Source: Cyanidioschyzon merolae
Lineage: Eukaryota
Direction: 5' to 3' (one strand)
Length of the DNA stretch: 64,000 bases
Assembly: GCA_000091205.1 (NCBI GenBank)
Contig: AP006496.2
Positions 33,101-56,668 of this stretch are shown here, piece after piece; position 1 is the stretch's first letter; every line of letters begins with the position of its first letter. The position numbers and the translations under genes are program-made. The notes beneath the pieces are model-generated. The model saw only the letters and a program-made list of their open reading frames with translations, searched no databases and was not told where the DNA came from.

Positions 33101-33277
33101 GTACGGGAATGTTTGGTTGCCACCAGCGGCGCCGAAGGCGACTCACTTTCGGGTACAGGGCGCCTCGAGAAAGCACGGCAGGTTTGGTTTCCCCTGGAGC
33201 AAGCTGGGCAGTATACAAACGTGGCGCAACGGGTAGCGCAGACGTTACACGACTTGCTACAGCGCCAGGATCGTTAA
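27155..33277 (+). CDS. GCN2: GCN2-like eIF2-alpha kinase: N-terminal RWD domain, Ser/Thr protein kinase domain with a large insert, and a long low-complexity C-terminal region
   Basis: The RWD signature is at the N-terminus (EELEALQAIYGSELRIL...FEVDV...LRFHLPQGYP). The kinase domain spans about 29130..30420: ELLGRGGFGAVVKVRQRLDGRIYAVKIV, HRDLKPTNIFV, IKIGDFGLA, VGTAFYRAPE, with an eIF2AK-style insert between subdomains. The 2040-aa ORF is uninterrupted. I could not recognise a HisRS-like region by eye. Confidence 0.8.
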   Translation: MAMGAAEARSEELEALQAIYGSELRILSDDDELHFEVDVHVASANQPANDALGVRLRFHLPQGYPSGGWRARARVGVSAGPASTQKWSLSPNDLEVLRRKIQSLCEEAARARTSVGYEVVELARTFLREYLEASHDLGEAGTIVRPLHEAMLEREQRQFEEQERAELERTAQQRERLERLQQQREEAERLQTLEALAAEERLARKLQYQRMAESSTAVDEDGHCTAEGGSGIATNAHPWDVPPSWTILEALRETLQQQSERRVARDLDDVSIWSGHQDDLDAERSEHSDGDATAQPAAAYERVSSVAAWEAASYGVSQGIRSSWLSLGSLRTSSSSPSSSLSHSMRSASSDDSSIAVAEFPRALRKGKHPSQSASVSGSPSTSENTGIFADWCWTHSKPHRSSACGTSTDASSASKSGCSASASTKTSPAQQTLPGTAAKSGSERARRSRRRRSRRHHHHHHDRVPSSTYTVQQEHQQQVLKWFLESLCAQMTPDEAAAACARWHRKLGIVLERSAAAASASEDCDDDRIQGIPSAPLMIQLNDDRDVDGSVTNLLSFGEALTRKAPDRLEATVKRVLGSTAWHYCRQFVHGERFRKTSHGRAQQSLQSGQEKERKAPLSLTSHTHAQHTLQFGHGEERRHRSLLQGNVPPAGTRKRTSRFETDFDMLELLGRGGFGAVVKVRQRLDGRIYAVKIVPLHRKDLEDPRILRETTTLSRLAHPRCVRYYGCWVEPIDVLRFSEALSSARTGAQDSQRALGAASAANTSAAQYQAQQQQQQPSLSLASLVLREQLSYSMPSSDTTGATSAGPESSSAIVAFLFIQMEYCPRTLRAFIDQDLDAGTDLWQVFRQIVEGVEYLHSLMLIHRDLKPTNIFVGGPRVSSSPSQGTLGDRLSHTWTETESISIKIGDFGLATTLSVASLRRAPGAAEATNARGTADAASADGAGETSAALELTRSVGTAFYRAPELSMRPASNEQDTEQPISSSPTYDTKVDIYALGVILFELFYGPMQRTAATAAPGCKTSGDGSSSVTEHERFVILTNLRERLQVPAAFAEKLPRQTRLIRLLMAKNPDERPSAKQLLKMLPVKVEHEYWSELLQAVADPVSTVDRRLRTRVIGALFEGALRGAAPLVRKRDIHQAPGESSHASSGAAHGIVHSCLEASPVAWNCLHQAVAVLQRHQSVAFVLQHHVDASVLDSRIANGLRRVNTTEAHRTRHQLGSNGTGGVESAQRLVRAGTEGVAGYSQAAAAGRRAATPVLLPTGEYVWLPAERFHDFLEQWMSSSAAVEALTRASIAPPLRFHRVATVWGWRSLDAPRSFDDPLAGCAYLEALFEAPGLSKSAPANIRSGERLVQRRSGAMSAAASVHVSSSSSSSSLACRVRSNESSMQASRSSSMGTVASDEQLHGAASALWWHSTSAERHELFATTLLEFDELQLKLRRRRWRRRRRQRQRRGQETTSALLLVDAELLFMATSLLWPYCPSTGPMKLVSTAEQRTSGTSTSTGRRGSKARQRQNRRGTHSASTGAASASASAASGSASVSTTSVEKVLIRIGHTGLTRALTRALLTGSSSSSSSSSSCSNSNVYRALEYEDVGDQAGALAQLRAALHQHLRLGWNGLLRLLATATEHPWNKPSAQTARRHAEQLVHACQQLAPLSMLQQLATSTAVLVTGGQAAFVQAALVQLERVLCQWALLLDHGEWLAPFGVSLEAAATTTTTTATATVVVARDAADTPGMSKAPVAQPWPPQGPVRVLVDPFLWPVGAASLERFTSSDQVCFEASLITTGETGTRHVRPVLWGGHWQRGFRAPQPAPASAATKASKGLSMPAPLTLPELYGCGFVVDLSLLAAVATMGLTSSLDLSSRLLASVYVGMLRESTATTVARAASASVMYLVLLGHLWRQGWCCIPDDNDDDDDNHGDEVDDNNVGDEDDHHDDDDDDDEHSGNDTHGLAGRSLHEHLQRAGARSCRFLVLIRAHDASVLVRECLVATSGAEGDSLSGTGRLEKARQVWFPLEQAGQYTNVAQRVAQTLHDLLQRQDR

Positions 33278-41461: not shown

Positions 41462-42514
41462 TCAGGATGTGCGACGTTGGTACGAACCTCGAAAGCGCCA
41501 CAGCATCCACAGCGCTACGCAAAGGCCCACAAAGTGGCTTAAAAGCGCGTTGGTGTTCGCTTGCACCACGAAAATATCCAGCGCTTGAACGTAGCCGACA
41601 GTACCACCACCGGCCTGAATACTGCCGGTCGCGTAGAATGGTAGCGGCCCTGCCACGCCTTGGCTCAGCGCCTTGGCTAAAAGGACTCCACTGATGCTCT
41701 GCGCCCCGATAAGCGTCAGCGCCATCCCTAAAATATTGATGAAGACACCTATCCGCAGCGTGCGGAAGATGTTTTCGCTGCGTATGCCGTAGCCCATCTT
41801 GCCCGCGCGCATCAGACGCCGGGCAAGGCGGATGTACCCATAAGCCCAAAACACCGATATAAACGCAAAAACGAGGCCAATGCCGGCAAATATCAGGCCA
41901 GTGGATGCGGCAGTCGTCGTTGTTGTCCCAGCTCCGCGAGTTCCCTGCAGAATGGCCACCGCAAACAGGGTAATGCCTCCAGCAACTATCGAAAGCAGTA
42001 GTTGCGCCCACCAGGCCACCGCCCCGAGGCGATAGAGTGCAGCGCTCACACGAGTCACATCCAGACTATTAGGGGACTCCCCAGAGTCTCCAATATCTGG
42101 CGAAAAACTCTCGTCTATGTCCTCGTCGGGTTCACGGGCAGCGTGTGCAGGCCGGCTGGGGTCGGCGCCGCTCGCGCTCCTGCCCTGCAAACGCAGACTC
42201 CGCCACCAGCACGACGTGCGCCGTTCACGAACCCGCCGTACACTGGTGGTAATCAGGTGTCGTGGCAGTCGATCCCCGACAGCCTGTCGATGAAACGCCC
42301 TTGGCACTGCAGAAAATATCGTCGTGAACGCCAAATCCATTAGAGGAACGTTCTTGTAAGTAGCGAAGCGCTTTCCAGTGAGCGCTGCAGCATTGCTGCG
42401 CGTACGGAGATTGTGTGTGGCGGGACGCGCAGCGGCTGGCACTTGGCTGTTCTCCCATCCAGCGTCGATACTGCAAAGCCAGAAGAGCATAGCACGAGAC
42501 ACACTTTTATACAT
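41462..42514 (-). CDS. Multi-pass membrane protein (4-5 TM), function unknown
   Basis: The 350-aa ORF has several long hydrophobic Gly/Ala-rich helices (LLLSIVAGGITLFAVAIL, GLIFAGIGLVFAFISVFWAYGYI, IGVFINILGMALTLIGAQSI, LSHFVGLCVALWMLW) and a hydrophilic N-terminal region. It is possibly DUF3611-like, but I cannot confirm that. Confidence 0.45.
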   Translation of the reverse strand: MYKSVSRAMLFWLCSIDAGWENSQVPAAARPATHNLRTRSNAAALTGKRFATYKNVPLMDLAFTTIFSAVPRAFHRQAVGDRLPRHLITTSVRRVRERRTSCWWRSLRLQGRSASGADPSRPAHAAREPDEDIDESFSPDIGDSGESPNSLDVTRVSAALYRLGAVAWWAQLLLSIVAGGITLFAVAILQGTRGAGTTTTTAASTGLIFAGIGLVFAFISVFWAYGYIRLARRLMRAGKMGYGIRSENIFRTLRIGVFINILGMALTLIGAQSISGVLLAKALSQGVAGPLPFYATGSIQAGGGTVGYVQALDIFVVQANTNALLSHFVGLCVALWMLWRFRGSYQRRTS

Positions 42515-42560
42515 GGGGTGTACATACTAGCAATTGGGCTTCTTCCCAGTGTCATGAACG

Positions 42561-42805
42561 CCAGCGTGCTAGGGCTTTTCCCATGATTGCATCCTTTTTT
42601 TCTCTGTGATCCTAGGCTGTAACGACACCTGTCTCTCCTGTCTCTGTTGCTCCGTCGTCACCAGTCGAAGGACATTATAGATACCAGCGTGCTCGGGCTT
42701 TTCCCATGATTGCATCCTTGTTTTCTCTGTGATCCTAGGCTGTAACGACACCTGTCTCTCCTGTCTCTATTGCTCCGTTGTCACCAGTCGAAGGATATTG
42801 ATAGC
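42561..42805. repeat. ~124-bp tandem duplication (2 copies) adjacent to repeat-family copy C
   Basis: The unit ccagcgtgct.gggcttttcccatgattgcatcctt.ttttctctgtgatcctaggctgtaacgacacctgtctctcctgtctct.ttgctccgt.gtcaccagtcgaagga is repeated head-to-tail. Copy A has a related single segment, ctgttgtcaacagtcgagggata, at ~10057. Confidence 0.85.
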
Positions 42806-43440
42806 AGCATTCGAGTCCCAAGGACGCAGCTTCTGGTTAAGATCGACTCAGTTGGTACACGGGTAGCAATAGCAATCTATAGCTCGCTGGTTATTTTCAT
42901 TTTTTTCTTAGGGAGCCTCGGTGCGCCCTTCGCAGCGGTAACGCTCGACTGGTGTCAGGTGCTCCACAATGTCTAACACTGTTCCTCTTTCGAGGGTTGA
43001 CGCGTGCAGCGCGCAAGCTTGCTTCATCGCTCGATAAATGTCCTTGACCGATGGAGACGGCTTCTCTGCAGGCTCTCCTCTGTTTCCACGTCCAGAGTCG
43101 CGGCTTTTAGTAACGCTCTTGTTCTCGGTGATTCGTTCTGCGAGTGCGCTGTTCGCTGCAGGTACGAGCGCACGCTGTTCCATTCGATACAGGATTTGTG
43201 GAACGCGGTGTCGTCCATGATGAAACAAGTACGGGACAGAAAATCCGGTCTGGAGAACCTGTCCGGAGATTTCGATCTGTCTTTGTTCGCTTCATGCAAA
43301 GTCGTGAAGCACGCGCCACTGGAAGCGGTCTTGGCGAAGTCTAAAGTCCGAGTCCAAGGCCCTGTTGCATGCAAACAGGAGAGACGCGAATCTCTGAGAA
43401 CGTATTCCACGCGAGACATATCATGATGATGTCGGATTCC
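42806..43440 (-). mobile_element. Copy C of the dispersed transposon-like repeat family
   Basis: ORF 42908..43228(-) MFHHGRHRVPQILYRMEQRALVPAANSALAERI...GRGNRG...VEHLTPVERYRCEGRTEA is homologous to copies A and B. Confidence 0.45.
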
Positions 43441-45287
43441 GTTTCATCGATCGGGAAAAAAGAGCCGGATTTGGCTCTCGAACGAAATCGATGACTTAAT
43501 GTGACAAATTCAGGACATATTTTCCATGAACTTATGAACCATTCGTCAAGAGATGACGCCGAGGTTTTTCCTCGCCAATTCAGGGGCACGAATCGCTGCA
43601 CCCATGAGTTGCCCTGAAACAGAAGAGATCAAAAACTCGGGGAGTGTGTGATCTGAGCATGCTAGACCGAAGGAAATAAGATGCGTGGATGTTCGTATGT
43701 ATGAACTTGGTAAATGATATCAATGATTTAACGAATTCATGTTCGAAGGCGCTGCGAGCCATCTTGTTTCCCGCTCCGCCACGACTTCCATCGGCGAGGA
43801 TTCGAAAGCGCCATCTGGAACGTGCAGCCGAGAATCTCAGAAATAGGTTCCCATGCGTACGCCCTTCTTGTTGCACTTCGAATACCAGGGTACCGCATTT
43901 ACGAAATAGTTCGAGAAAGAAGTCGAGTAGCAGCAACAGAGCGATCAGCTCAGTATTCTATATCCATGGTACACGGGTTCTGATCGCGAGCACCATTCCA
44001 TGAAACAGGCGTTCCGCAAGCGCCTGCTAGACCGAGTTCGCTCCTGCTGGCATGCGGTGCATCACACGAGTACAACGTCCAGCGCAATGAATACACCAAT
44101 GGAAACCCATCCCGGTGATCGCGCATATCCATGCCCTGACTTGTTGCTGACACCACCGAGTATCGATATGTTTGCCGGGCGAGGTTCGGCTGGTGACGCA
44201 TTCATCGAACGATGAACGCACACAGGTTCGAGGCGTCGACGCACCAGGCTCAAGTGAGCCCGCCAAGGGCATCGCAAGCCCGTATTCGTGGTCTTTTTGA
44301 ATGGAGCAAGCCTCGGCGAGCGCGTCTGCCTCTATGGAATCATAGACGACGAATGCCCCGTGACGCGTACATCTCCCAGGTGTGCTGTGCCTGTGGCATG
44401 CGCATACCAATGTCAAGCGAGAACAACATTTTCCATAATGAGATTTCCGACGCACACAGCTCTGTACCGCGAGTTGCTTCCTGCTCTGGTCATAATAGGC
44501 GTAGTTCCAGGTGGCTGCGCCCCGACCGGAAACGCTTTCCCAAAAAAGTCATCACCAGAGGGTGAAAGCGATGAACGCATCCTCCCGAGCGATCTTGAAC
44601 GCGTCTTTTTCTGCATACCGCCATGAATGGAGAGCGCTCCACCAGAACACAACGGATATCCGAGTACGCATCACTGCAAAAGCTGGACGTCTCACGGCAG
44701 GTGGTACGCTCAGCGAGTCAGTCGCGGTGAGGCGTGCACGCTACACGTGCTCGGAAATGGACAACTCGCGTTTTGCACGGATTCCAAATTTTTCATCTTT
44801 CGCGTTTGCTCTGTCTCTGGCCCAGAATGCAAGAGCGTCACGAACAAGCCTTGCCCCGTAACGAAAGCAACGTACCAGATCGTTGCGGAGCAGTGGAAGC
44901 ACTGTACAGATTCGCGCTTTGGAAGCATCTGAAAAGCTACTTAGTACATATTTAAACAATAATGAACGTAATGTACATTCGTGCTTTGAAACGCTCCCGA
45001 AAGCAATCCTACCATCTACTTACACAATACCGAAAGCAATACACATTCGTGCTTTGAAACAATCCCGAATGCAATCTACCGCATCCTTCAATGATAGCGA
45101 AAGCAATCTCCATCAGCGTCCAACTGTATCCATAGAAAGAGCGCTGGTAGCGTCAGCCGCGCAGGTTAACCCAGCGGTACACGCCTTGCCCCAGGGGATG
45201 GTGCAGTTCGCCGCCGCCGTCGATATGCACTTGAGCCGGCGACGAGCATCGCGGAAGCAGTGGTATCGGGAGTGGCGATAGACGACC

Positions 45288-48200
45288 ATGGGCAACGTAC
45301 GCAGACTAGAGAACAGTTCAACCGAGCATAGACTATGGAGTGCGTTAGGATTCACTGCACCCATAAACGATCGCTTTAGGCTTCGGGTAGCGTCACCGCG
45401 GGACTCGTGTGGCTGGAAGCGCTCACCGTGGACGCCTGCTGTCTCTCTGACGCGCTCCCCAAGACGCCCTCGACGGGGAACACTGACGACGCTGTGTCCA
45501 GTAGCGACAGCCGCTGCAAACAAACGAGGACAGGCTTCGTCACCAAAGATGAATAATTTCGGAAAAGATGGGGGACGTAGCGCTGGTGCTTCTCTGGAAG
45601 GCACCGGTGCTTTTTCGCCGCTCGATCGCCACTATGGCGGTGTGCACTACCTTGTACACAAGTTTGGAGGGTCGTCTCTTGCGGACGCGCCATGCTTCGA
45701 ACAGGTTGTGAGCGTACTCGAGAAAGAACTGGCTGCGGAGACGGCTGCGCTTCGTCAGCTAGCAGAGGCCGCTGGTCGGGAAGCGCTTCCTTGCCGCCTC
45801 TTCGTGGTCGTTTCAGCGGTGAGCGGTGTCACCAACACGCTTGAGCACGCGCTGCAGTGTGCGATTGAGCGCAATAAGGACGAGCACTACCTGGAAGTAT
45901 TACAGAAGCTCCAGGAACGTCACGAAACGCTTGCGCATGCCCTCTTAGACAGCAACGAAGCGAAGCAGCCATTTTTTGCCATGCTATCGTCAACCATGCA
46001 AGACCTGAAGGACCTGCTGCGAGCTGCCTTTATTTCTAGATCGGCATCCAGTGCAGTGAAAGACCTTGTGCTGGGTTACGGGGAGTTGTGGTCGGCACAG
46101 CTTATGTGGGCACGCCTGCGGCAGCAACAGCGCCTGCATGTGGCTGCGGGTCAAAATACCCCAGGAAGTGTCGTGTGGCTCGACGCACGCAACGTTATCG
46201 CTGTGCGACGTATACCAACCATGCCGTCTGAGCGCAAGTCCGTGGACTGGGATATGACGCAAAAGCTATTCGACGAGTGGATGAGCCAACACGCGGGCTC
46301 AGGACTCGTTGTAGCAACCGGTTTCTTGGCTCTGGACGCAGACCGGAGAGTACCTACCACACTGGGTCGCAACGGCTCGGATTTCTCTGCAGCAATCTTC
46401 GCTCGGCTGGTACGCTCGCCCACATGCACGATATGGACTGACGTGGACGGCGTATTTTCGGCAGACCCGCGTTGCGTCCCGGATGCGATTATCATTCCAC
46501 AACTCAGTTTCAAAGAGGCAGCCGAACTGGCGTACTTTGGTGCCAAAGTACTCCATCCGGATACGCTGACACCGGTCGTCATCAGCGGAACACCCGTTCG
46601 CATTCGGAATACGTTCCGCCCGGATGCTGGTGGCACAGAGATCCTGCCGTCAGCGCGAATGCTTGCTGGTGAAGCGGCTCTCGATGCAGCGAACCAAGTG
46701 AACGGATCGATCGGGGTTGCACATTCTTTTGCATCGTTGGCAGCGAGGAAAGCGGCCATGGGTATCACTGCGGGCGTCAAAGGCTTCACTTCCGTTCGGG
46801 ATATTTCCATCGTGAACGTAGAGGGAGCGGGCATGATCGGCGTACCTGGTATTGCCAGCCGTGCATTCGCCGCACTCTACGCTGCGAATGTTTCCGTTGT
46901 TTTGATCGCACAAGCGTCCTCAGAGTTCTCCATCTGCGTTGCAGTGCCCGGTACAGACGGCACCACGGCTACCGAGGCGTTGCGGCGAGCGTTCCGTATC
47001 GAAATCGAAGACCAGATCATCAATTCTGTTGAACTGCTGGCAGACTGCTGTATTCTGGCCATGGTTGGTGAAAACATGCAGAACACACCCGGTGTCTCTT
47101 CGCGCCTGTTCACCGCATTGGCTAACGCCGGTGTCAATATCCGAGCGATCGCCCAGGGCAGCAGCGAACACAACATTTCAGTGGTGATCCAGGCTGGTGA
47201 TGAGGTGCGAGCACTTCGAGCAGCGCACGCTGCCTTCTACCTCGGCGACTACACCATTTCCGTGGGTATTATCGGGCGCGGACTTGTCGGCAGTACTCTG
47301 ATCGAGCAAATGCGTGAACAGAGAGCCAAGCTCCACGACCAGTACGGAGTCGACTTTCGCATTCGGGCCATTGCGTCCAGCAGTCGTATGTGGTTGCTCA
47401 GCAGTGGCGAAAATTTCGATGAGTTCAGTGCACCAGGTCGCAACTGGATGGACGATTTTGAAAAACGGGCGGAAACGCTCGATCTCGATCGCTTTGTAGG
47501 CCACGTGAACGACGGAACCCTACCACACGCGGTACTCGTCGACTGCACTGCTTCTGGCGAGATTGGTGCCAAGTATGCCTCTTGGTTGCGGGCTGGACTC
47601 CATTTGGTGACACCGAACAAAAAGGCAAACTCTGCTTCAATGGAGTACTATCGGGAGATTCGCGACGCAATGCGCGCACGGAACACACACTTCTTCTACG
47701 AAGCGAACGTCGGTGCTGGACTACCCATCATATCCACCGTCCGGGATCTGCTGCGTACTGGAGACTCGTTTCTCAGCATAGAAGGCATTTTCAGTGGCAC
47801 GCTCTCGTACATCTTTAACTGCTTCGACGGAAGTACCCCGTTCAGCCGCATCGTTCAGCAGGCCAAGGAACTTGGGTACACGGAACCGGATCCTCGGGAG
47901 GATCTCGCTGGTGCAGACGTTGCGCGAAAAGTCGTCATTCTTGGACGTGAAGTCGGGCTCGACATTGAGCTCGATCAGATTAGCGTCCAGAGTCTGGTAC
48001 CGGCCGCACTGGACGCCAGCCAGGGCGTATCAGTCGCCGAGTTTATGGAACGCTTGCCCGAGTTCGATGACGAACTCAACCGTCAAGTCCAGGAGGCAAG
48101 CTCCCGTGACCAAGTACTCCGCTATGTTGGCGTTGTCGATGTTCAGAACCGGCGGTGTGCTGTGGAACTGCGCGCGTATCCACGCAGTCATCCCTTTGGT

Positions 48201-48362
48201 GGCCTCGAAGGCAGCGATAATATCGTGTGTTTCCGAACTGTTCGCTATGATGCGCAGCCACTAGTTGTACGAGGACCGGGTGCTGGGGCTCAGGTCACCG
48301 CCGCTGGTGTCTTTGCGGACCTCCTGCGTCTAGCCGGACACTTTGGTGCACCAAGCGGTTAA
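45288..48362 (+). CDS. Bifunctional aspartokinase / homoserine dehydrogenase
   Basis: The aspartokinase N-terminus is VHKFGGSSLADAPCFEQV. ACT-domain regions follow (ISIVNVEGAGMIGVPGIASRAFAAL; ILAMVGENMQNTPGVSSRLFTALANAGVNIRAIAQGSSEHNIS), then the homoserine dehydrogenase NAD-binding motif ISVGIIGRGLVGSTLIEQ and the catalytic domain (EANVGAGLPIISTV). The first 87 aa are Arg/Ser/Thr-rich, suggesting a possible organellar transit peptide. An alternative start is Met 45549 (MNNFGKDGG). Confidence 0.85.
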   Translation: MGNVRRLENSSTEHRLWSALGFTAPINDRFRLRVASPRDSCGWKRSPWTPAVSLTRSPRRPRRGTLTTLCPVATAAANKRGQASSPKMNNFGKDGGRSAGASLEGTGAFSPLDRHYGGVHYLVHKFGGSSLADAPCFEQVVSVLEKELAAETAALRQLAEAAGREALPCRLFVVVSAVSGVTNTLEHALQCAIERNKDEHYLEVLQKLQERHETLAHALLDSNEAKQPFFAMLSSTMQDLKDLLRAAFISRSASSAVKDLVLGYGELWSAQLMWARLRQQQRLHVAAGQNTPGSVVWLDARNVIAVRRIPTMPSERKSVDWDMTQKLFDEWMSQHAGSGLVVATGFLALDADRRVPTTLGRNGSDFSAAIFARLVRSPTCTIWTDVDGVFSADPRCVPDAIIIPQLSFKEAAELAYFGAKVLHPDTLTPVVISGTPVRIRNTFRPDAGGTEILPSARMLAGEAALDAANQVNGSIGVAHSFASLAARKAAMGITAGVKGFTSVRDISIVNVEGAGMIGVPGIASRAFAALYAANVSVVLIAQASSEFSICVAVPGTDGTTATEALRRAFRIEIEDQIINSVELLADCCILAMVGENMQNTPGVSSRLFTALANAGVNIRAIAQGSSEHNISVVIQAGDEVRALRAAHAAFYLGDYTISVGIIGRGLVGSTLIEQMREQRAKLHDQYGVDFRIRAIASSSRMWLLSSGENFDEFSAPGRNWMDDFEKRAETLDLDRFVGHVNDGTLPHAVLVDCTASGEIGAKYASWLRAGLHLVTPNKKANSASMEYYREIRDAMRARNTHFFYEANVGAGLPIISTVRDLLRTGDSFLSIEGIFSGTLSYIFNCFDGSTPFSRIVQQAKELGYTEPDPREDLAGADVARKVVILGREVGLDIELDQISVQSLVPAALDASQGVSVAEFMERLPEFDDELNRQVQEASSRDQVLRYVGVVDVQNRRCAVELRAYPRSHPFGGLEGSDNIVCFRTVRYDAQPLVVRGPGAGAQVTAAGVFADLLRLAGHFGAPSG

Positions 48363-49056
48363 CGCAGATTCCCTACACTCGTTGAACGATGACTCTTCGT
48401 AAACAGTCTGTGGACCGGTCGATGACGTTCAAGCGACGGATGCTTGCTGGGTTGTACGGGAGTGCCCACTTTGCCACTCGCTGTGCTGATGGCGTTTCCG
48501 GGACCCGCAACTGCCACAGCGGCTTCGATAGACGCCTCCACGCCGGAGCTCATGATACCGTACGTTCTACCAGCGACGTGATAAACGACACCGACATGCA
48601 CGCGTGACCAACAGCGTAGAGCGTGCTTGTACCAGCAAGGCGCGCTCTGGGTACCGCCTCAAATCTGGTGAAGGCACCAGGGAGCGAGGTTTATCGTTCG
48701 TCATGGTATTCGGCGGTTTGTCAGCTGCGGGTACCATACACCCGGTCGATGCAGGACTCGTACCTGCGCGAGGTTTCCAGGTCGTGTCGCAGGGGTATCG
48801 CGCCCGGCACCAGCGGCTCCTTCTGAACACGACTGATCAACAGGTCTGCCGAAGCGTTGCACCCCAGGTGGCATGGTTACGAAGAGCGTGTCGCACAGCA
48901 CGAAAAAAAACGGTATCGTGCAGTTGTCTCGTCTACAGCGACGCGCTTGGTGTTTCAGGGATCGTTTTGCATGTCAAGCGTTTTGAATGCCAGGAACGTG
49001 CTCGTCTCCACTGGGAATCCAGGATGCGTAGGGTAACGATGGTATGGGGAGTTGCT

Positions 49057-52000
49057 TTACGCTCCAGAGTGCCACGTGGTCGTCGTGTATCCATCTTGTG
49101 CTCGTGGACGTGAAGCAGACGGCTGACAAGGATGATCATGAGGGCGATGACGTCGACTGCGACGCCAAGACCACCACTTGGATCGCTTTGCTTTTTCAGC
49201 GCTGGAGCCTTGTGTCTGCCACTGGGTCCCCGGTGCCGTGGCAGAGGCTTCAGCGGCATGTGCAGTGTACTCCGCGGTTCGCTCTGAAGGCCGCAACGTC
49301 GACAGAGACGCTGCCTCCCGCTGGAAACGCATCTCCGAGTGGTCTCCTGGCAGCGTATCATCCAGTTCAGCGAACGATACCTCGTCTGCAGCGTTACTTT
49401 CCGTATCCGAATCGAAAGCGTCGCGCCGTTGGACCAGCATCGTCGAAGGGATGGTACAACGGGTCTCCTCGGCATCACCACGAACATCCCGAATGCTGAC
49501 CTCGAGGTTGCCGTGCTCGTCAAGCGTGAACGCGAGCTCGACCCGAGCACCGCCAGCCCGATGTCGTACGGGACTCTTGAATCCATGGAACTCGACGATC
49601 TTCAGCAGACGATGGTGACGATGTGCGTCCTTTGCACCCAGCGGACGTAACCGGAGTCGTGATCCCTGATAAATGAAGAAGGCGATCGCATCCTGTCGAT
49701 CGACACATGTGGTTACCGTCACTGTCCGCTCGCAAGGAAAGCAGGTGCCGGCTTCGATCAGCGGTAGAAAGCGTCCACCGGCAACTTCGATGCCCAGTGC
49801 ATGAACTAGGGCTTTGGGCTGATCCTCGGTTTGGTTTGGGGCAACACCCACGAACTCTGTCCAGTCTGCGGAGCATGTCGATGCCGACGCAGCGTCTACG
49901 CTGGACTGGACTGCTGGACTGGTGTTTTCCGAAGCAGCGTGAGCGACGTCACCACCACCGCCACCAGCAACGGCAACAGCAGCACCAGCAGCAGTGGTGC
50001 CAGGGGCAAAGACCCCAGATAACGTGCGTCCCGCTTCCTCGCAGCCGCTCTCTCTATCGTGATAACCGCTGAGACTATCGCTGCTACCTGCCCGTGATGG
50101 AAATGCAGACGCGGATCCGCCCCAAGTGCCTCTAGTCGAGGGCAGTAGCGGTCGCGTCTGTGGCGCTGACCCGCTTCCGCGCTCTTCACTCGACAGATCC
50201 GAACTAGTCTCGATATCAATGAGCGGCAGCGCTGACTGCTGCACCATTGACCCATATGTCCGCGATACTGCCGCTTTTCCCGAGTATTGTTTGGCTACGG
50301 AGGCGGGTACCGAGCCCTCCGTGGACGACCTCAAGAGATGTAGATGCGCATCCTCGTCGAGACTGAGTTGACGGTCGTCCTCATCCTGCTCATACAGTTC
50401 CCGCTTCGACAGTCGACCGCGTTGGTCAGCGCCAAAGCGCATCTCGTCACGACGCCTGGAGTGTCGGTGTCTGTCGAACAGGGCGCCTTTTCGACGTGCC
50501 TCTGCGTTTCCGCTGGACACTTCATCGATCGTCGCTGCGTCACTGGTACCTGCTGTCGTTGCGCTTGTCGAGACGCCACGCGGCGGACGCTTGAGCGACG
50601 GTGCGTCGGTCTCCCCGAGCAGTGCGACATCCCGTGGAAGGATCGGTGGGAAGCTAAGGCCGCCGGTCTCGACCCCGAGCGCGGTAAGGATGCGCGGTAA
50701 TGCCTCCCGCAGTGAGCGATGACCCTCGAGTCCCAAGAGCGCCAGGTTGACGTTCTCGACGCGTTCACCGCATCCCCGAATGGGAGAGAGGCCAGCCACC
50801 CGGAACTGACCACTCGAACCGCGGTGAAATAGGGCCAAGGCCCAGTCGGTTCCACAATACGCATTCACGAGACGACCCGAGACTGCACGCGAAGCGCGCT
50901 GCCATCGTCGACTGTCGCCGGTACACGGGGCACCGACCAAGAAGGCATCGTCGACGACGCCGTAGACACCAGCGTCCGCGAGCGCTTCCAAACACTTGAA
51001 AACGACTCGAGCACCATGCGAGTAGCCAATGAGGGTGACAGGTCGCTGGCCCTGCTCTCGCAAAGCCAACAGGTCCGCTAAGGCATCACCAGCAGCGTTC
51101 GCTCTGTTCAAAAGTACAGACCAGGGGCCGTCCACGATATCTGCTGCCGAATAGACGAACAGAGGCCAAGCGATAGATGAGAGCAGCGTTCCCGCTGCAA
51201 ACGAGACCGCCTGAAGCACATGCGGTGCAGCCTGCTGCGCTGCCGTCGTGGCTGCTTTTGTTGTCCAAAACTTGAGAAACGCTCTCCCCATTTCGAAGAG
51301 CTGATCGGGTTCCCAACGCAGTGCATAGCGCTCTGCGTACGGCAAGAGCCTGCCATTCCCCAGCGCGCTGTAGAACTGCGAAGCACAGGCTCCTTCCTGG
51401 CGAGAACGCGTTAGCCAGCCGGGAACGAAAATCACCAGGTGAAGGCCTCGACTCCGCACCATACGAGTTGCCATGAGCGGGTGCTCCTGTTTGACAAGTT
51501 CTGCTGCGCCGTTGTCTTCAGTGCCGCTCTGGGTTTCATGGGTGCTCGACGGTACCGCAGCGGAGTCGATGTCATCTGCAGTTGCAGCATCCGTTGCAAT
51601 TGCGCGTGTGAGGCCCTGGTTGCCAGCACCACCAGCACCACCAGCACCACCATCGGATGCTGCGGACGTACCGGACGCTTTCTCGGTTGCCGCAGCATCG
51701 TCGCGGTGTGCTTCTGTCGTCGGATGCAGCGGCCTCAGCGTCCAAGTGCGCTCCGCAAGGCGCTTCTCCAGGATGCTTGCCGGTGTTGCGTGTCGGAATC
51801 CCTGACCTGACGCTGTTCGCAGTGATGTCGTCGATAGCGCGCCCACAGACTCACCGGAAAACCCAGTGGTATCCTCGTTGGACGCTGCTACGAGCGGTGC
51901 TGTCCCGCGTGTTGGCGGCTCGGGGAGCATTGGTGCAGGCGCCAACCCACCCGGATGTGAAGACGACTTGAGCGTTCGAATAGACGCAAACGGTAGCTGT

Positions 52001-54507
52001 GGTTGTTGCGGGGAAGGCTCTTCAGGTAGGCGCAAACGGTGACTTTTGTCGGCAAACAAAGTATTCCGCGCCAAGTCGCTGTCATCGATATGCTGCCGCT
52101 GCGTTTGCTGCCTCTCTTGGAACGTCACCGGGTCGGGCACCGGCACCGATGCATCATCAACCGTATCGATTGTTTCTTCCATCGCAGATTCAGGTACCTG
52201 CACGGTTGCACTTCGCTTCACGTCTAGCTTCTCTGCTGGAGCGTCTCTCGTGGCTTCGATGGCCCCTGACATCCTCGCCCCGAGTTCCGTTGTACTCTGT
52301 TGAATGCTGTGATGCAAGTGAGCACGCTGTTGTTGCACTGCGCTTTCCCGTGGTGAAGAAGAATTCGCTCTCGACAACGATGACGGTGATGATCGTGACG
52401 TCTCCAGCGACTCTACCTGCTCGCTCGTGTCTGCAGCTGGATATCGCGCTCCTCGCTGCGCAGCGCTTTCCATCGTGGATTCGCCCCAGTGCTCTGACGA
52501 CTTGCCATCGGCATCATCATCCAGTGCAGTCAACTGCAGTGTTTCGACGCCGTTCGCTGCATCGAACGAGACTGGTGTCGGGCGACACGGCGAAGACGAC
52601 CCCGAACCCGTGTACATGCCCGCTGTGAGGCGCACACGTTCACCATTATCCAGCGCACGAAGATGCTGATGTGGTAAAGCTCGCTGCTCCGATACCTGCA
52701 GGGATTCCCGGATAGCAGCGGCCAGTTGTTGTTCTGCCTCCGTCCAGCCTGGCCCGTGCGAAGCACTCTCGCCTTGCACGGGACTCGAGACGTGCGCTGC
52801 GCCAACTGCGATATCGTACCGAGGCGTCGAAGGGGGCGCTGCTGCTTCACCCGACAATGCCGTCGTTTTTGCTGCCTTTGTGTGTTGTTGATGCCAGCTG
52901 CGAGCTGCCTCCTCGATACCGAGCGGTTCGAGTTCAAACTCCGTTAAGCGCATCCGTGTCCGTTTGCGCGCTTTGTGGCCAACGTAACCTGCGCCAAGGC
53001 CACCGAAAAAGCTGCCCACTACTGCGCCAGATGCAACTGTGCCTGTAGCGGCAAGTGCGCTCGCACCAGTGATACCAATGCCAACTAGAGCCGGTAGAAG
53101 AAGCGGCGCTGCAAGCGCTCCAGCTAGTCCAAAGAGCGCCCCTCCGCCAATCGCCATAGCAGCTATTTTGAATGCTCTCCGCCGAGACTTGCGCTTGTAG
53201 CGCTTCTTGGCAAGCGTAGCGTATATCTGAGGGTCCACGTTCCCGCCGTTCAACTCGGGGCAAGTGGGTGCTCTGCTTTCCTCTGGCTGTCCGAGCGTCG
53301 ATGGACTCAGGATGGATGCAGCGTCGAGCGTGACGCCGCGGATGCGTTGCTGTTGCTGTTGCTGTTGCTGGAGAAGTGCGGCTATCGCATACTCGACCAG
53401 CGCCATTTTTCGCCATGGTATTTGGAGCTCGCGTGCAGCGTCCCGCAAGAACACGCGGCAACGGGCGTCGTATCCGCCAGGAGCGAGCGATAGCGTCAAC
53501 ATGGCCTGGAGCGCTGCAAAGCGAACCGCTGGAGCACCAACCAAAGCCGCCGTGGACGCAACCAAGGCACAGCGCTGCGCGGGAATGAGCTCACCTTCTA
53601 GACAGGCTCGCCACAGATACATGAGCGCTTCTCGTTGACTGCATGTGAGACCGAGGCCACTCAGCAGCAGTTGCACGTAGCGTTCCGCAAAGCTAGTGTC
53701 ATATGCGGGTAGGTTGCGGAGCGCTGGACGCCGTGAACTAGCGCTCTGACGCTCAGTGGATGCTGTCGAAGGTCTCTCGTGTGGCTCCGGTGCCGGAGAG
53801 TGCCCCTCGATTGACACTGGAGCGCGATCCCCAGCTCCTGGTCTATCCACTTCGATCGCATTGCTCGTTGGAAGATCACGCTCAAGTATCCGTTTCGAGG
53901 GCGAGGTCGCTGTACGGTGCTCCTGGGTAGCAGCAGCCGGTGCCTGATCGCCGTCCACGTCGCACTGCGGCGCGTCTGCAGACGTGACGACGCTGGGCAA
54001 AGTGCTCATGACAAGTCCGTCATCATGTCGCAGTTCTCGTTCCTTCTCCGCAATGAGGGTTACGAGAAACGCTCCCAGGCCGTAACGTTGCTCGAGGGTC
54101 AGCGTCTCGAGCCCTGGATGGACGGGCTGCTCATCGGTCGCAGGGAGGTCCTCTTGCAGCGCCGTGAAGCGCTCCAGAACTGCATCAGCATCCACGTGAA
54201 AGAGTTCTCGCTCCGTATCGTCCAAGGCGGTAACCAGGGCGCCAAACTCTTCGTCAACCTCGCATTCCTCCGTCTGCAGGAGGTCATACGTCGTTCCGAA
54301 CACTTCCGGGCCGTCAGCCGCTGGCGCTTCGAACACTGCTGGTTCTCCCTCCACGTGATACTGCTCCTTCTGAGGGAGGACCCGATCCAGATCCAGCGGC
54401 TGGTAGTCGCCGCCCACTGCTTCAGAGGCTGCACTCGTGAACCGCGGGAGCGCCTCGTCTGACGTTCGCACATCAAACTCCGTCGTTGAGGCTGCCTTAT
54501 ACGTCAT
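49057..54507 (-). CDS. Giant TMCO4/DUF726-family membrane protein with an additional C-terminal Hsp70 substrate-binding-domain-like beta-sandwich
   Basis: The 1816-aa ORF is uninterrupted. It has a TMCO4-like N-terminal helical region and glycine-zipper TM helices (~52975..53185: IAAMAIGGGALFGLAGALAAPLLLPALVGIGITGASALAATGTVASGAVVGSFFGGLGAGYVG). The DUF726 alpha/beta-hydrolase core lies at ~50640..51480 (RPVTLIGYSHGARVVFKCLEALADAGVYGVVDDAFLVGAPCTGDSRRWQRASRAVSGRLVNAYCGTDWALALFHRGSSGQFRVAGLSPI...VENVNL..LEGH). At ~49400..49830, LGIEVAGGRFLPLIEAGTCFPCERTVTVTTCVDRQDAIAFFIYQGSRLRLRPLGAKDAH...ELAFTLDEHGNLEVSIRDVRGD matches the Hsp70 SBD-beta pattern (LGIETAGGVMT.LI.RNTTIPTK..Q.FTTY.DNQ..V.I.VYEGER......NLLG.F.L.GIPPAPRG.PQIEVTF.IDANGIL.VSA.DK). 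Confidence 0.7.
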   Translation of the reverse strand: MTYKAASTTEFDVRTSDEALPRFTSAASEAVGGDYQPLDLDRVLPQKEQYHVEGEPAVFEAPAADGPEVFGTTYDLLQTEECEVDEEFGALVTALDDTERELFHVDADAVLERFTALQEDLPATDEQPVHPGLETLTLEQRYGLGAFLVTLIAEKERELRHDDGLVMSTLPSVVTSADAPQCDVDGDQAPAAATQEHRTATSPSKRILERDLPTSNAIEVDRPGAGDRAPVSIEGHSPAPEPHERPSTASTERQSASSRRPALRNLPAYDTSFAERYVQLLLSGLGLTCSQREALMYLWRACLEGELIPAQRCALVASTAALVGAPAVRFAALQAMLTLSLAPGGYDARCRVFLRDAARELQIPWRKMALVEYAIAALLQQQQQQQQRIRGVTLDAASILSPSTLGQPEESRAPTCPELNGGNVDPQIYATLAKKRYKRKSRRRAFKIAAMAIGGGALFGLAGALAAPLLLPALVGIGITGASALAATGTVASGAVVGSFFGGLGAGYVGHKARKRTRMRLTEFELEPLGIEEAARSWHQQHTKAAKTTALSGEAAAPPSTPRYDIAVGAAHVSSPVQGESASHGPGWTEAEQQLAAAIRESLQVSEQRALPHQHLRALDNGERVRLTAGMYTGSGSSSPCRPTPVSFDAANGVETLQLTALDDDADGKSSEHWGESTMESAAQRGARYPAADTSEQVESLETSRSSPSSLSRANSSSPRESAVQQQRAHLHHSIQQSTTELGARMSGAIEATRDAPAEKLDVKRSATVQVPESAMEETIDTVDDASVPVPDPVTFQERQQTQRQHIDDSDLARNTLFADKSHRLRLPEEPSPQQPQLPFASIRTLKSSSHPGGLAPAPMLPEPPTRGTAPLVAASNEDTTGFSGESVGALSTTSLRTASGQGFRHATPASILEKRLAERTWTLRPLHPTTEAHRDDAAATEKASGTSAASDGGAGGAGGAGNQGLTRAIATDAATADDIDSAAVPSSTHETQSGTEDNGAAELVKQEHPLMATRMVRSRGLHLVIFVPGWLTRSRQEGACASQFYSALGNGRLLPYAERYALRWEPDQLFEMGRAFLKFWTTKAATTAAQQAAPHVLQAVSFAAGTLLSSIAWPLFVYSAADIVDGPWSVLLNRANAAGDALADLLALREQGQRPVTLIGYSHGARVVFKCLEALADAGVYGVVDDAFLVGAPCTGDSRRWQRASRAVSGRLVNAYCGTDWALALFHRGSSGQFRVAGLSPIRGCGERVENVNLALLGLEGHRSLREALPRILTALGVETGGLSFPPILPRDVALLGETDAPSLKRPPRGVSTSATTAGTSDAATIDEVSSGNAEARRKGALFDRHRHSRRRDEMRFGADQRGRLSKRELYEQDEDDRQLSLDEDAHLHLLRSSTEGSVPASVAKQYSGKAAVSRTYGSMVQQSALPLIDIETSSDLSSEERGSGSAPQTRPLLPSTRGTWGGSASAFPSRAGSSDSLSGYHDRESGCEEAGRTLSGVFAPGTTAAGAAVAVAGGGGGDVAHAASENTSPAVQSSVDAASASTCSADWTEFVGVAPNQTEDQPKALVHALGIEVAGGRFLPLIEAGTCFPCERTVTVTTCVDRQDAIAFFIYQGSRLRLRPLGAKDAHRHHRLLKIVEFHGFKSPVRHRAGGARVELAFTLDEHGNLEVSIRDVRGDAEETRCTIPSTMLVQRRDAFDSDTESNAADEVSFAELDDTLPGDHSEMRFQREAASLSTLRPSERTAEYTAHAAEASATAPGTQWQTQGSSAEKAKRSKWWSWRRSRRHRPHDHPCQPSASRPRAQDGYTTTTWHSGA

Positions 54508-55279
54508 GAGCTACAAAATGGAGCCTTCGGAGTTCCCGTATTGCCGTTTCTGGTGTCTTTCGATGACCAGCTCTGTCGACAAGTCCCAGTGCTCGAAGAG
54601 AAGCTCAGCAGCTGCCGTCGTCAAGCAGTACAAACACAACTGTTATCGGGCTCCGTTCAGCGGTCAACGGTACGTTCCCCTGTAGTACCAGCTATTGTTG
54701 CAATAAGTTCTCAGTGCATTCGACCGTTCAGTTTTCCGGAACAGCGAATGTCTCTGAAATTCCTAAGCCTCTGACTGTGCTAAAGCGAAAACCCTGCAGA
54801 GAAAAACATCGCGACTTGGCTCGCAATTGCCTCTGGAGCATCGCCGTGGTGGCCTTAACGGAAAACGCTTCAAGTCGCCTGAAGCGCTACGCTCTGCTGC
54901 CGTGGTCGACTTGTGCACTGGAGGCTACCGAACTTCTAATCAAGGCCGCGACTTGAGTGGAACGGGAACCAAAGCAGACCTCCTAGGCTGCGGTGGTGGA
55001 CGTGCACTGGAGACTACTGAACGTCGAGTAGTCTCGGGTCGTGCTGCGACACTCGGACCGGTACGCAACGCACCAACTGGAGTCGTGTGCGTCAAACGAC
55101 TCGCGTGCTTCACGAGTCTACAGAGAAGGACTCGACTAGGACAAGTGCTTCACCAGCGTTTCCTCGTGCTCGACACCTTCGGAGCGGAACCCGACTCCAA
55201 CGCTTTCGCGTTATCGACTGTTCGCTTGCTGAAGGTCGGATACGTTGCGGCGCTTTCATCGACGCACTGGTCAGACGCC

Positions 55280-56668
55280 ATGTTCCAGGTGCTCGTCGTT
55301 GGCGCCAGTGTAGGTGGTCTCGCAACCGCCGCCCAACTGCAACGACGAGGCGTGACTAACTTTCAGGTTATTGAAGCAACGAACCGATCGGCACGAGCGA
55401 GTGCCAGTCGAGCTGTGGGCCTCTGGACGAACGCCTGGCAAGTTCTGGACGCTCTGGGGATCGCTGCTGCACTTCGCCAAGCGAGTCCGTGGAATACGAC
55501 AGAGTTCTGGGTCCAGGACCTGCCAACTGCAGACTTGACAGCGCATGCGTGCCTGCGTCGTTTTGCACTCCCCAGGGGTCACGAGTTCCGCCGAGTTCCG
55601 CTTCAAGCGCTGACAGACGCGCTGGCTGCGTCCCTGCCTGCGGAGCACCTGCACTATGGTATGGATATGGAGCAATGGCTCAGGCAGAGAGCGGCAGTCT
55701 CAGAGCCTGCTTCGACACCGGAGATGGATCGAGGTCGTGAGAAACTGGGGCTCTGGGAGTCACCAGCATTCCCTCCAGACCTCTTTCTTGTTGGAGCCGA
55801 TGGTGCTCGCTCCGTCGTTCGCCATCGACTAGTTGGAGACGACCGACCGCTACGCGATGCGGGCTACGTAGCCCACACAGGCGTTGCGCAGCTTCCGTTG
55901 CCTGGATGCAACGCTGAGGACCCTGGGAACGCGCTGGGGAGCGTCGAACTCACCAAACCGGGTCGTGTGCTTCTTCTGCTTGGCCGCGGGGACGGCACGC
56001 GCCTAGGCGTGCAAAGAATCAACGAACATCAAGTATTTTGGTTTTACTGTGAAAACTGCGGTGCGGCCTCAAATCAACCAGCAAACAAGTCAAAGGAGCT
56101 GCGCATGCTGCGCGGCTCCGAAACCAAGCAACGCGCCTGGGAACGTGTCTCACGCTCTGTAGCACGTCCACACGGGGTGCTTTGGAATGCACTTGAACAA
56201 CTGTTTCGAGAAACTCCAGCGGAAGCCGCGAATACATTCGCTTGTGCTGATCTCTTCCCGCCTGTCTATGACGGTACGCTGGGGTTCGATGACGTTCCTG
56301 TGGCGCTCGTTGGGGACGCAGCTCATCCGATCACTCCGAATCTCTCACAGGGCGCTGGTCTAGCGTTGGAAGATGGCTGGATGTTGGCCAATCTTTTGGC
56401 GGACGCCTACATTCGCAACGGCAACCGTGATGAGCAACAAGCGGAGCAGCGGCAGGAGCACTGGAGTGCTCGGGTTCGGCGAAAATACCGGCAGCGAAGA
56501 CGCTGGCGAGCTAGCGTACTCGCGCTCCGCTCCCGAGCTACTGGTGCGGTGTTGCAACTCCCGCTGCCGTCCTCAACCCTGGTGACGATTCGAAACCGCA
56601 TTTTGTTGCCACTGGCTCTACAACCTCATTGGTTCGTGAGCCATGCAAACTTTTCTGCTAGAGGCTGA
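55280..56668 (+). CDS. FAD-dependent aromatic-ring monooxygenase (PHBH fold; salicylate hydroxylase / zeaxanthin epoxidase-like)
   Basis: The GxGxxG FAD-binding motif is VLVVGASVGGLATAAQLQRRGV. The DG motif is LFLVGADGARSVVRHRL. The GDAAH motif is ALVGDAAHPITPNLSQGAGLALEDGWMLANLL. ORF 54827..56668; start chosen at Met 55280 immediately before the Rossmann strand. It is divergent from the TMCO4-like gene. Confidence 0.8.
   Translation: MFQVLVVGASVGGLATAAQLQRRGVTNFQVIEATNRSARASASRAVGLWTNAWQVLDALGIAAALRQASPWNTTEFWVQDLPTADLTAHACLRRFALPRGHEFRRVPLQALTDALAASLPAEHLHYGMDMEQWLRQRAAVSEPASTPEMDRGREKLGLWESPAFPPDLFLVGADGARSVVRHRLVGDDRPLRDAGYVAHTGVAQLPLPGCNAEDPGNALGSVELTKPGRVLLLLGRGDGTRLGVQRINEHQVFWFYCENCGAASNQPANKSKELRMLRGSETKQRAWERVSRSVARPHGVLWNALEQLFRETPAEAANTFACADLFPPVYDGTLGFDDVPVALVGDAAHPITPNLSQGAGLALEDGWMLANLLADAYIRNGNRDEQQAEQRQEHWSARVRRKYRQRRRWRASVLALRSRATGAVLQLPLPSSTLVTIRNRILLPLALQPHWFVSHANFSARG

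Follow-up and report, generated by a model that had tools for sequence, protein, structure and literature searches.

A TMCO4/Mil1-family hydrolase of red algae carries a C-terminal Hsp70-type substrate-binding domain without the ATPase domain, linker or functional lid

TMCO4 of human and Mil1 (Yfl034w) of yeast share an N-terminal helical region with a YDAR motif, a glycine-rich hydrophobic block, and a core that contains a GxSxG serine, an aspartate, and a histidine. In Mil1 this triad (S759 in GxSxG, D817, and H858) is required for full function in yeast (PMC4751606). Human TMCO4, termed an 'orphan lipase', has a diffuse distribution until its recruitment to the endoplasmic reticulum (ER) by RAB18 (PMC10641524), and the substrate of the human and yeast members is still unassigned (PMC10641524, PMC4751606). 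Membrane recruitment of these relatives occurs through protein-protein contacts of their non-conserved regions, lineage-specific extra regions mediating recruitment in this family (PMC4751606, PMC10641524). The substrate-binding domain (SBD) of Hsp70/DnaK (PDB 1DKZ, 3N8E, 3H0X) includes an eight-stranded β-sandwich, SBD-β, and is almost always joined to an ATPase motor. Here we describe a gene from Cyanidioschyzon merolae in which an SBD-β is detached from that motor and reused on an enzyme. It lies in a 64,000-nucleotide stretch of contig AP006496.2 (assembly GCA_000091205.1; hereafter the window), and its product is a red-algal TMCO4/Mil1-family hydrolase with an acquired C-terminal Hsp70 SBD-β that lacks the ATPase domain, the interdomain linker, and a functional lid.

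The gene is a single open reading frame (ORF) with an ATG start and no stop across 5.4 kb, as judged from the ORF list and translation (Table 1). The translation matches BAM81242.1/XP_005537278.1 of C. merolae 10D ('hypothetical protein, conserved'; TMCO4 in UniProt) letter for letter. The window is accordingly nuclear DNA of this red alga, and a trypanosomatid source, which composition by itself had suggested, is rejected. A TAG lies in frame two codons upstream of the ATG, so 1816 residues is the longest possible reading. The original prediction held that this uninterrupted frame fuses a TMCO4/DUF726 hydrolase to a segment resembling the Hsp70 SBD-β, that no ATPase domain accompanies it, and that the architecture was an unfamiliar one; a stop between the two parts would have spoken against it. 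The single frame was confirmed, with no such stop, while the extension past the DUF726 core, estimated at ~400 residues, had to be corrected to ~520 beyond the hydrolase core. Compared with TMCO4 and Mil1 the protein has ~1100 extra residues, made up of two long disordered inserts and the SBD-β. Orthologue alignment and per-region identities revealed conserved islands alternating with divergent low-complexity sequence, and the extra length consists mostly of three poorly conserved low-complexity stretches.

With a score of 248.5 bits, the protein lies far above the cut-off (22.6) of the Pfam DUF726 profile (PF05277; E = 1.2e-73; best stretch residues 982–1279), which establishes the proposed family identity. 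Over residues 1016–1293 the hydrolase core is 91% identical to the Cyanidiales protein P0002 and 84% identical to P0004. Residues S1163, D1221, and H1263 are invariant in five diverse members, including the non-fusion protein P0006 (alignment A3), and form a candidate catalytic triad; the equivalence to S759, D817, and H858 of Mil1 rests on motif analogy (PMC4751606) and not on direct alignment. Y346, D347, A348, and R349 in the N-terminal helical region are also invariant in P0006. The glycine-rich hydrophobic block that precedes the core (residues 445–510) is 89–94% conserved in Cyanidiales and 52% identical to Porphyra, with a Kyte-Doolittle peak of 2.14 over residues 445–489; together with the basic stretch before it (residues 433–530) it is 94% identical to P0002 and 89% identical to P0004. 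A local hidden Markov model (HMM) of this block ('tm') matches all fusion proteins, at residues ~433–538 in the near-identical P0001. By every sequence feature tested, the hydrolase part is a full DUF726/TMCO4 protein. The Apm2-binding WQEMP motif of Mil1 was not seen in the translation when it was inspected by eye, and no solved DUF726 structure was found.

The C-terminal segment matched the Pfam HSP70 profile (PF00012) over residues 1570–1715, equivalent to profile positions 393–527, which is the SBD-β part. The expected PF00012 match therefore held for that part only, and the window protein on its own scored 19.8 bits, under the cut-off of 20.6; its orthologues passed the cut-off unaided with 20.8, 28.3, 45.3, and 26.9 bits. 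For this segment, a phmmer search of all PDB sequences returned Hsp70 SBDs exclusively, with Kar2 and DnaK at E = 3e-7, and a four-member family profile matched Hsp70 SBDs at E = 1.4e-14, far past chance; identity to Hsp70/DnaK SBDs is 25–28%. AlphaFold2, run with an 11-sequence family alignment, produced a model in which exactly eight strands precede a weak helix, with a mean predicted local distance difference test (pLDDT) score of 78.9. When this model was compared with the PDB using Foldseek, the top 50 hits were all Hsp70/DnaK SBDs (E ~1e-11). Sequence searches and fold comparison thus both uphold the predicted likeness to SBD-β. The domain (residues 1567–1690) is 86% identical to P0002 and 56% identical to P0004, relatives whose flanking linkers are 16–26% identical, and from these values it is under strong purifying selection. 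We also attempted to assign its origin to the cytosolic, ER, mitochondrial, or bacterial Hsp70 class, and this failed because the differences in family-profile score (55–58 bits for eukaryotic cytosolic/ER-type SBDs, 50 for DnaK, and 40–43 for mitochondrial SBDs) were too small.

The remaining parts of an Hsp70 were absent. No part of the protein matched the ATPase domain in Pfam or NCBIfam, whose matches cover only profile positions ~373–527, in agreement with the original prediction. No hydrophobic interdomain linker (VLLLD) precedes the LGIE with which the domain, like that of Hsp70/DnaK, starts, and the EEVD tail is also missing. The helical lid (SBD-α) was not found: no Pfam HSP70 match extends past profile position 527 of 599, and AlphaFold2 places after the SBD a single short helix (pLDDT <~55), a doubtful helix A, the remaining tail helices being of low confidence. 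The protein is not an Hsp70, but it contains a homologous SBD-β.

To examine which features of the domain have been kept, the family was aligned to E. coli DnaK and eleven fusion sequences were compared, with DnaK residues assigned to pocket, arch, and interface as we take them to lie in DnaK structures. The positions of pocket residues I401, F426, V436, I438, and I472 are hydrophobic throughout, except for a serine at I472 in P0014; in our mapping V436 and F426 correspond to Ile1602 and Val1598 of the C. merolae protein. Q433 is invariant, S427 is always threonine, and the structural Pro419 and Gly482 are invariant. The arch pair M404/A429 has shrunk to Ala/Thr plus Cys/Ala/Gly, the lid-latch Arg467 is alanine in Cyanidiales, loop L4,5 contains a basic insertion of 11 residues relative to DnaK, and the ATPase-contact positions K414, N415, and D481 vary freely. 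A retained pocket, a drifted interface, and a lost lid are as expected for a domain in which peptide binding has been kept and allostery is gone.

The taxonomic survey combined a search of representatives with cluster look-ups. When 1.84 billion representatives were searched exhaustively by HMMER, the SBD profile yielded 43 proteins at E ≤ 1e-10, and among the SBD-profile matches a local DUF726-core HMM identified both domains in P0001, P0002, P0004, P0005, P0007, P0014, P0019, P0021, P0029, P0037, and P0042. There are five named carriers: C. merolae, Cyanidiococcus yangmingshanensis (KAK4531541.1, 1618 residues), Cyanidium caldarium (KAK4538141.1, 1474 residues), Porphyra umbilicalis (OSX78802.1), and Pyropia yezoensis. 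Orthologues with the same fusion, as the original prediction had proposed to look for, are thus annotated in four other red algae and occur on six further contigs. These six contigs are eukaryotic, the fusion genes adjoining RB-like and nicastrin genes, and their products have C-terminal motifs in common with the Porphyra and Pyropia proteins; we infer that they come from additional red algae. The P0014 contig has no poly(A) and so cannot be called a transcript. The fusion is real and conserved in red algae. A word-indexed protein search with the hydrolase core gave 12 matches, mostly fragments, and the same kind of search with SBD alignment A5 gave none, probably because low-complexity words swamped it. 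For C. yangmingshanensis, an older model of 1174 residues (KAF6002770.1, P0003) departs from the sequence of every relative once past the hydrolase core and has no SBD, which the newer 1618-residue model (KAK4531541.1, P0207) has; the older model is probably the product of a frameshift or truncation.

Gene order around the fusion is also shared. An FAD-binding oxidoreductase, the fusion gene, an aspartokinase-homoserine dehydrogenase, and a DUF3611 gene follow one another both in the window (41462–56668) and on a Cyanidium-like contig (L003, 8387–18955) from a Rio Tinto acid-mat metagenome (ERZ1300892; PMC11052175).

A 2024 survey of α/β-hydrolase families lists Gta3, a Pex14 N-terminal domain, and, in Trichinella, TRAM, radical-SAM, and fucosyltransferase as fusion partners of DUF726, and Hsp70 is not among them (PMC11878206). 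Our full-text literature search found no description of a DUF726-Hsp70 fusion and no mention of its accession numbers, in keeping with the unfamiliarity noted in the original prediction. Precomputed Pfam annotation assigns both PF00012 and PF05277 to P0004 and P0014, and 395-residue fragments of the fusion protein carry the JGI label 'molecular chaperone DnaK'; the fusion has therefore been latent in databases without interpretation. Two other proteins have an Hsp70 SBD-like domain outside chaperones, with unrelated partner domains and no hydrolase. One is Chlamydomonas FAP363 (PDB 6u42_5F), a microtubule inner protein discussed for its Mn repeats (PMC10973386). The other, P0008, differs from the red-algal fusion in having kept the lid (profile positions 390–598). 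P0008 is a 755-residue protein from ENA and JGI metagenome contigs of ~3.5 kb that combines a protein kinase, a DnaJ C-terminal domain, and an Hsp70 SBD with no ATPase domain; a member of its cluster is named Bud32 by JGI.

We consider it somewhat more probable than an even chance that the SBD, working without ATP, clamps an extended hydrophobic peptide and in this way attaches the hydrolase to a protein that is its partner or its substrate. The protein would sit on the cytosolic face of an endomembrane by means of its glycine-rich hydrophobic block, and the orphan SBD-β would grip a short, extended, hydrophobic, and probably basic-flanked peptide in a fast-exchanging manner. Hsp70 fragments that have no lid continue to bind peptides and exchange them faster, and a lidless SBD without a motor should therefore behave as a simple recognition domain; for lack of a nucleotide cycle, chaperone-like folding or release of clients would be beyond it. 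The clamp may play the role that lineage-specific motifs play elsewhere in the family, namely binding of Apm2 of AP-1 in yeast and recruitment by RAB18 in human, in which case an appended peptide clamp would be the red algae's own solution to recruitment or substrate selection. That the arrangement has persisted over a very long span of red-algal evolution, in groups as far apart as Cyanidiophyceae and Bangiophyceae, suggests that such a clamp is useful without ATP.

Several observations weigh against this proposal. The window protein falls 0.8 bit below the Pfam HSP70 cut-off. The pocket residues are partly core residues and their conservation could reflect folding alone, and the reduced arch residues may have altered or weakened binding in the groove. 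An integral-membrane protein would run counter to published data on homologues; DeepTMHMM predicts no transmembrane element in human TMCO4 (PMC11878206). The partner protein of the clamp is putative, and the binding, localization, and activity of the red-algal members are predictions from sequence. What is described is a case of domain repurposing, lineage-restricted and purely computational so far; it overturns nothing and will interest mainly chaperone and membrane-trafficking specialists, for whom it is a clue to TMCO4/Mil1, an 'orphan lipase' conserved in eukaryotes. C. merolae can be manipulated genetically, which makes the idea directly testable.

The peptide bound by the SBD might instead be part of the protein itself. 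K..SK.W[FWL]..W-like motifs occur in ten of the 12 distinct fusion proteins (KRSKWWSW in C. merolae; peptide KAKRSKWWSWRRSRR), lying after the SBD in Cyanidiales and between hydrolase and SBD in Porphyra, Pyropia, P0014, P0021, P0037, and P0042. As a self-ligand, such a basic/tryptophan motif could either latch the protein in cis, which would be autoinhibitory, or link molecules into oligomers in trans, and a competing client or membrane would release it. Its character is kept while its position shifts across the SBD, as a tethered ligand could do, and it is absent from the non-fusion DUF726 proteins compared, which were very few. A hydrophobic core flanked by basic residues is also reportedly the classic DnaK-binding pattern, one that Rudiger et al. 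are said to have described in 1997. On the other hand, no match to the motif was found in P0019 or the fragment P0029, and AlphaFold2 modelling of residues 1548–1816 gave a detached helix (pLDDT ~42–46) with no confident docking as a strand in the groove, which is weak evidence given the shallow alignment. A basic/tryptophan patch is equally typical of membrane-interface binding, and we regard that role as equally plausible for the motif. On balance a self-ligand latch appears unlikely.

The β-sandwich may also be a degenerate relic that has lost peptide binding and now has just a structural, dimerization, or spacer role. The shrunken arch, the lost lid, the weak Pfam HSP70 score, and the 11-residue insertion in L4,5 are all consistent with such decay. 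However, purifying selection on the domain is strong, and very distant red algae have specifically retained a hydrophobic pocket, Q433, and the threonine at S427 while the ATPase-interface positions drifted, a pattern that makes the loss of binding unlikely.

A bolder version of the clamp proposal, which we hold to be improbable, is that the hydrolase acts on proteins and not on free lipids. The clamp would grip an exposed hydrophobic segment (examples are a tail anchor, part of a misfolded membrane protein, or the neighbourhood of a lipidated cysteine) and present it to the Ser-Asp-His site, with the basic/tryptophan motif as a pseudo-substrate until a client displaces it. If true, this would be an ATP-independent 'chaperone-guided hydrolase', and it would hint at protein-linked substrates for the TMCO4/Mil1 proteins of animals and fungi.

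Alternatively, the orphan SBD-β could dock in trans on a canonical Hsp70, at its ATPase domain, and thereby recruit or modulate the chaperone at the membrane. ATP-bound Hsp70 packs its SBD-β against its ATPase domain, so the ancestral surface exists, but the fusion family has not conserved the contact positions K414, N415, and D481 and lacks the hydrophobic interdomain linker, and we consider this very improbable. An artefact, in which an adjacent DUF726 gene and an Hsp70 fragment were read as one by gene model or assembly, could draw on the ~250 poorly conserved residues between the domains, but its probability is negligible: the frame runs through 5.4 kb without a stop, introns are few in C. 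merolae, the ORF is continuous in the independent Cyanidiococcus, Cyanidium, Porphyra, and Pyropia assemblies and on the six further contigs, the syntenic locus of the Rio Tinto Cyanidium-like genome is also one ORF, and the persistence of both domains beside linkers that are completely different from lineage to lineage in practice excludes a mis-joined gene model.

Table 1. Features of the fusion gene and their positions in the window (aa, amino acids of the encoded protein; CDS, coding sequence)
Feature	Position	Strand	Basis
Complete CDS, 1816 aa + stop, TMCO4/Mil1-like BAM81242.1	49057..54507	-	ORF list; identity to BAM81242.1; upstream stop
Conserved N-terminal helical region, aa 270-385 (FAERY...ALQAMLTLSL...YDAR...PW), then poly-Q	53353..53700	-	83% / 53% identity to P0002 / P0004, ~20% in flanks
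Basic stretch and Gly/Ala-rich hydrophobic block, aa 433-530, putative membrane-associating N-terminal part of DUF726 family	52918..53211	-	89-94% identity within Cyanidiales
Variable low-complexity insert, aa 531-1015	51463..52917	-	20% / 10% identity to P0002 / P0004; 79% disorder-promoting or small polar residues
DUF726 α/β-hydrolase core, aa 1016-1293	50629..51462	-	PF05277 E = 1.2e-73; 84-91% identity within Cyanidiales, 53% to Porphyra cluster
GYSHG nucleophile elbow (GxSxG) with candidate catalytic Ser1163	51013..51027	-	G1161, S1163, G1165 invariant in A3
Candidate catalytic Asp1221	50845..50847	-	Invariant in A3; by analogy with Mil1 D817 (PMC4751606)
Candidate catalytic His1263	50719..50721	-	G1262-H1263 invariant in A3; by analogy with Mil1 H858 (PMC4751606)
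Ser/Ala/Gly/Arg-rich disordered linker, aa 1294-1546	49870..50628	-	22% / 20% identity to P0002 / P0004 (16-22% to orthologues); composition
Acidic W-x-x-F motif ADWTEFV, aa 1547-1553, directly upstream of SBD	49849..49869	-	EWTAF in P0002, EWTDF in P0004
Hsp70-type substrate-binding β-sandwich SBD-β, aa 1567-1690, eight strands	49438..49809	-	
Short low-confidence helix, aa 1697-1715, at most a remnant of lid helix A	49363..49419	-	AlphaFold2 pLDDT ~42-52
Basic/tryptophan motif KAKRSKWWSWRRSRRHRPH, aa 1772-1790, C-terminal tail	49138..49194	-	63% / 32% identity to P0002 / P0004

Outside the conserved islands, the segment that follows the SBD (residues 1691–1771) is 26% identical to P0002 and 6% identical to P0004, and the tail reaches residue 1816. 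At the position of the acidic W-x-x-F motif, P0021, P0029, P0037, and P0042 have FDWE..., P0019 has in common with them the LQRRIWEEQERQ that comes next, and FDWELQRRIWEEQERQ is found before the SBD in the six further carriers. The acidic W-x-x-F also recurs near the N-terminus of P0014 (EDEWGDF, residues ~44–52) and P0037 (DGDWGEF, residues ~17–26), and at residues ~35–45 of P0021. Acidic W-x-x-F motifs resemble clathrin-adaptor ear-binding motifs; by analogy, a motif of this kind would agree with the connection of yeast Mil1 to AP-1. After the N-terminal helical domain comes a run of nine glutamines (residues 382–390; 53338–53364, minus strand; QQQQQQQRI region), which is shorter or interrupted in P0002 and P0004.

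The neighbouring ORFs of the window (a bifunctional aspartokinase/homoserine dehydrogenase, an FAD-binding oxidoreductase, a DUF3611 protein, and a GCN2-like RWD-kinase) fit a eukaryotic alga. No tRNA was found in the 64 kb. The GCN2-like ORF, at 27155–33277 on the plus strand, encodes 2040 residues, among them an RWD domain at the N-terminus and a protein kinase domain.

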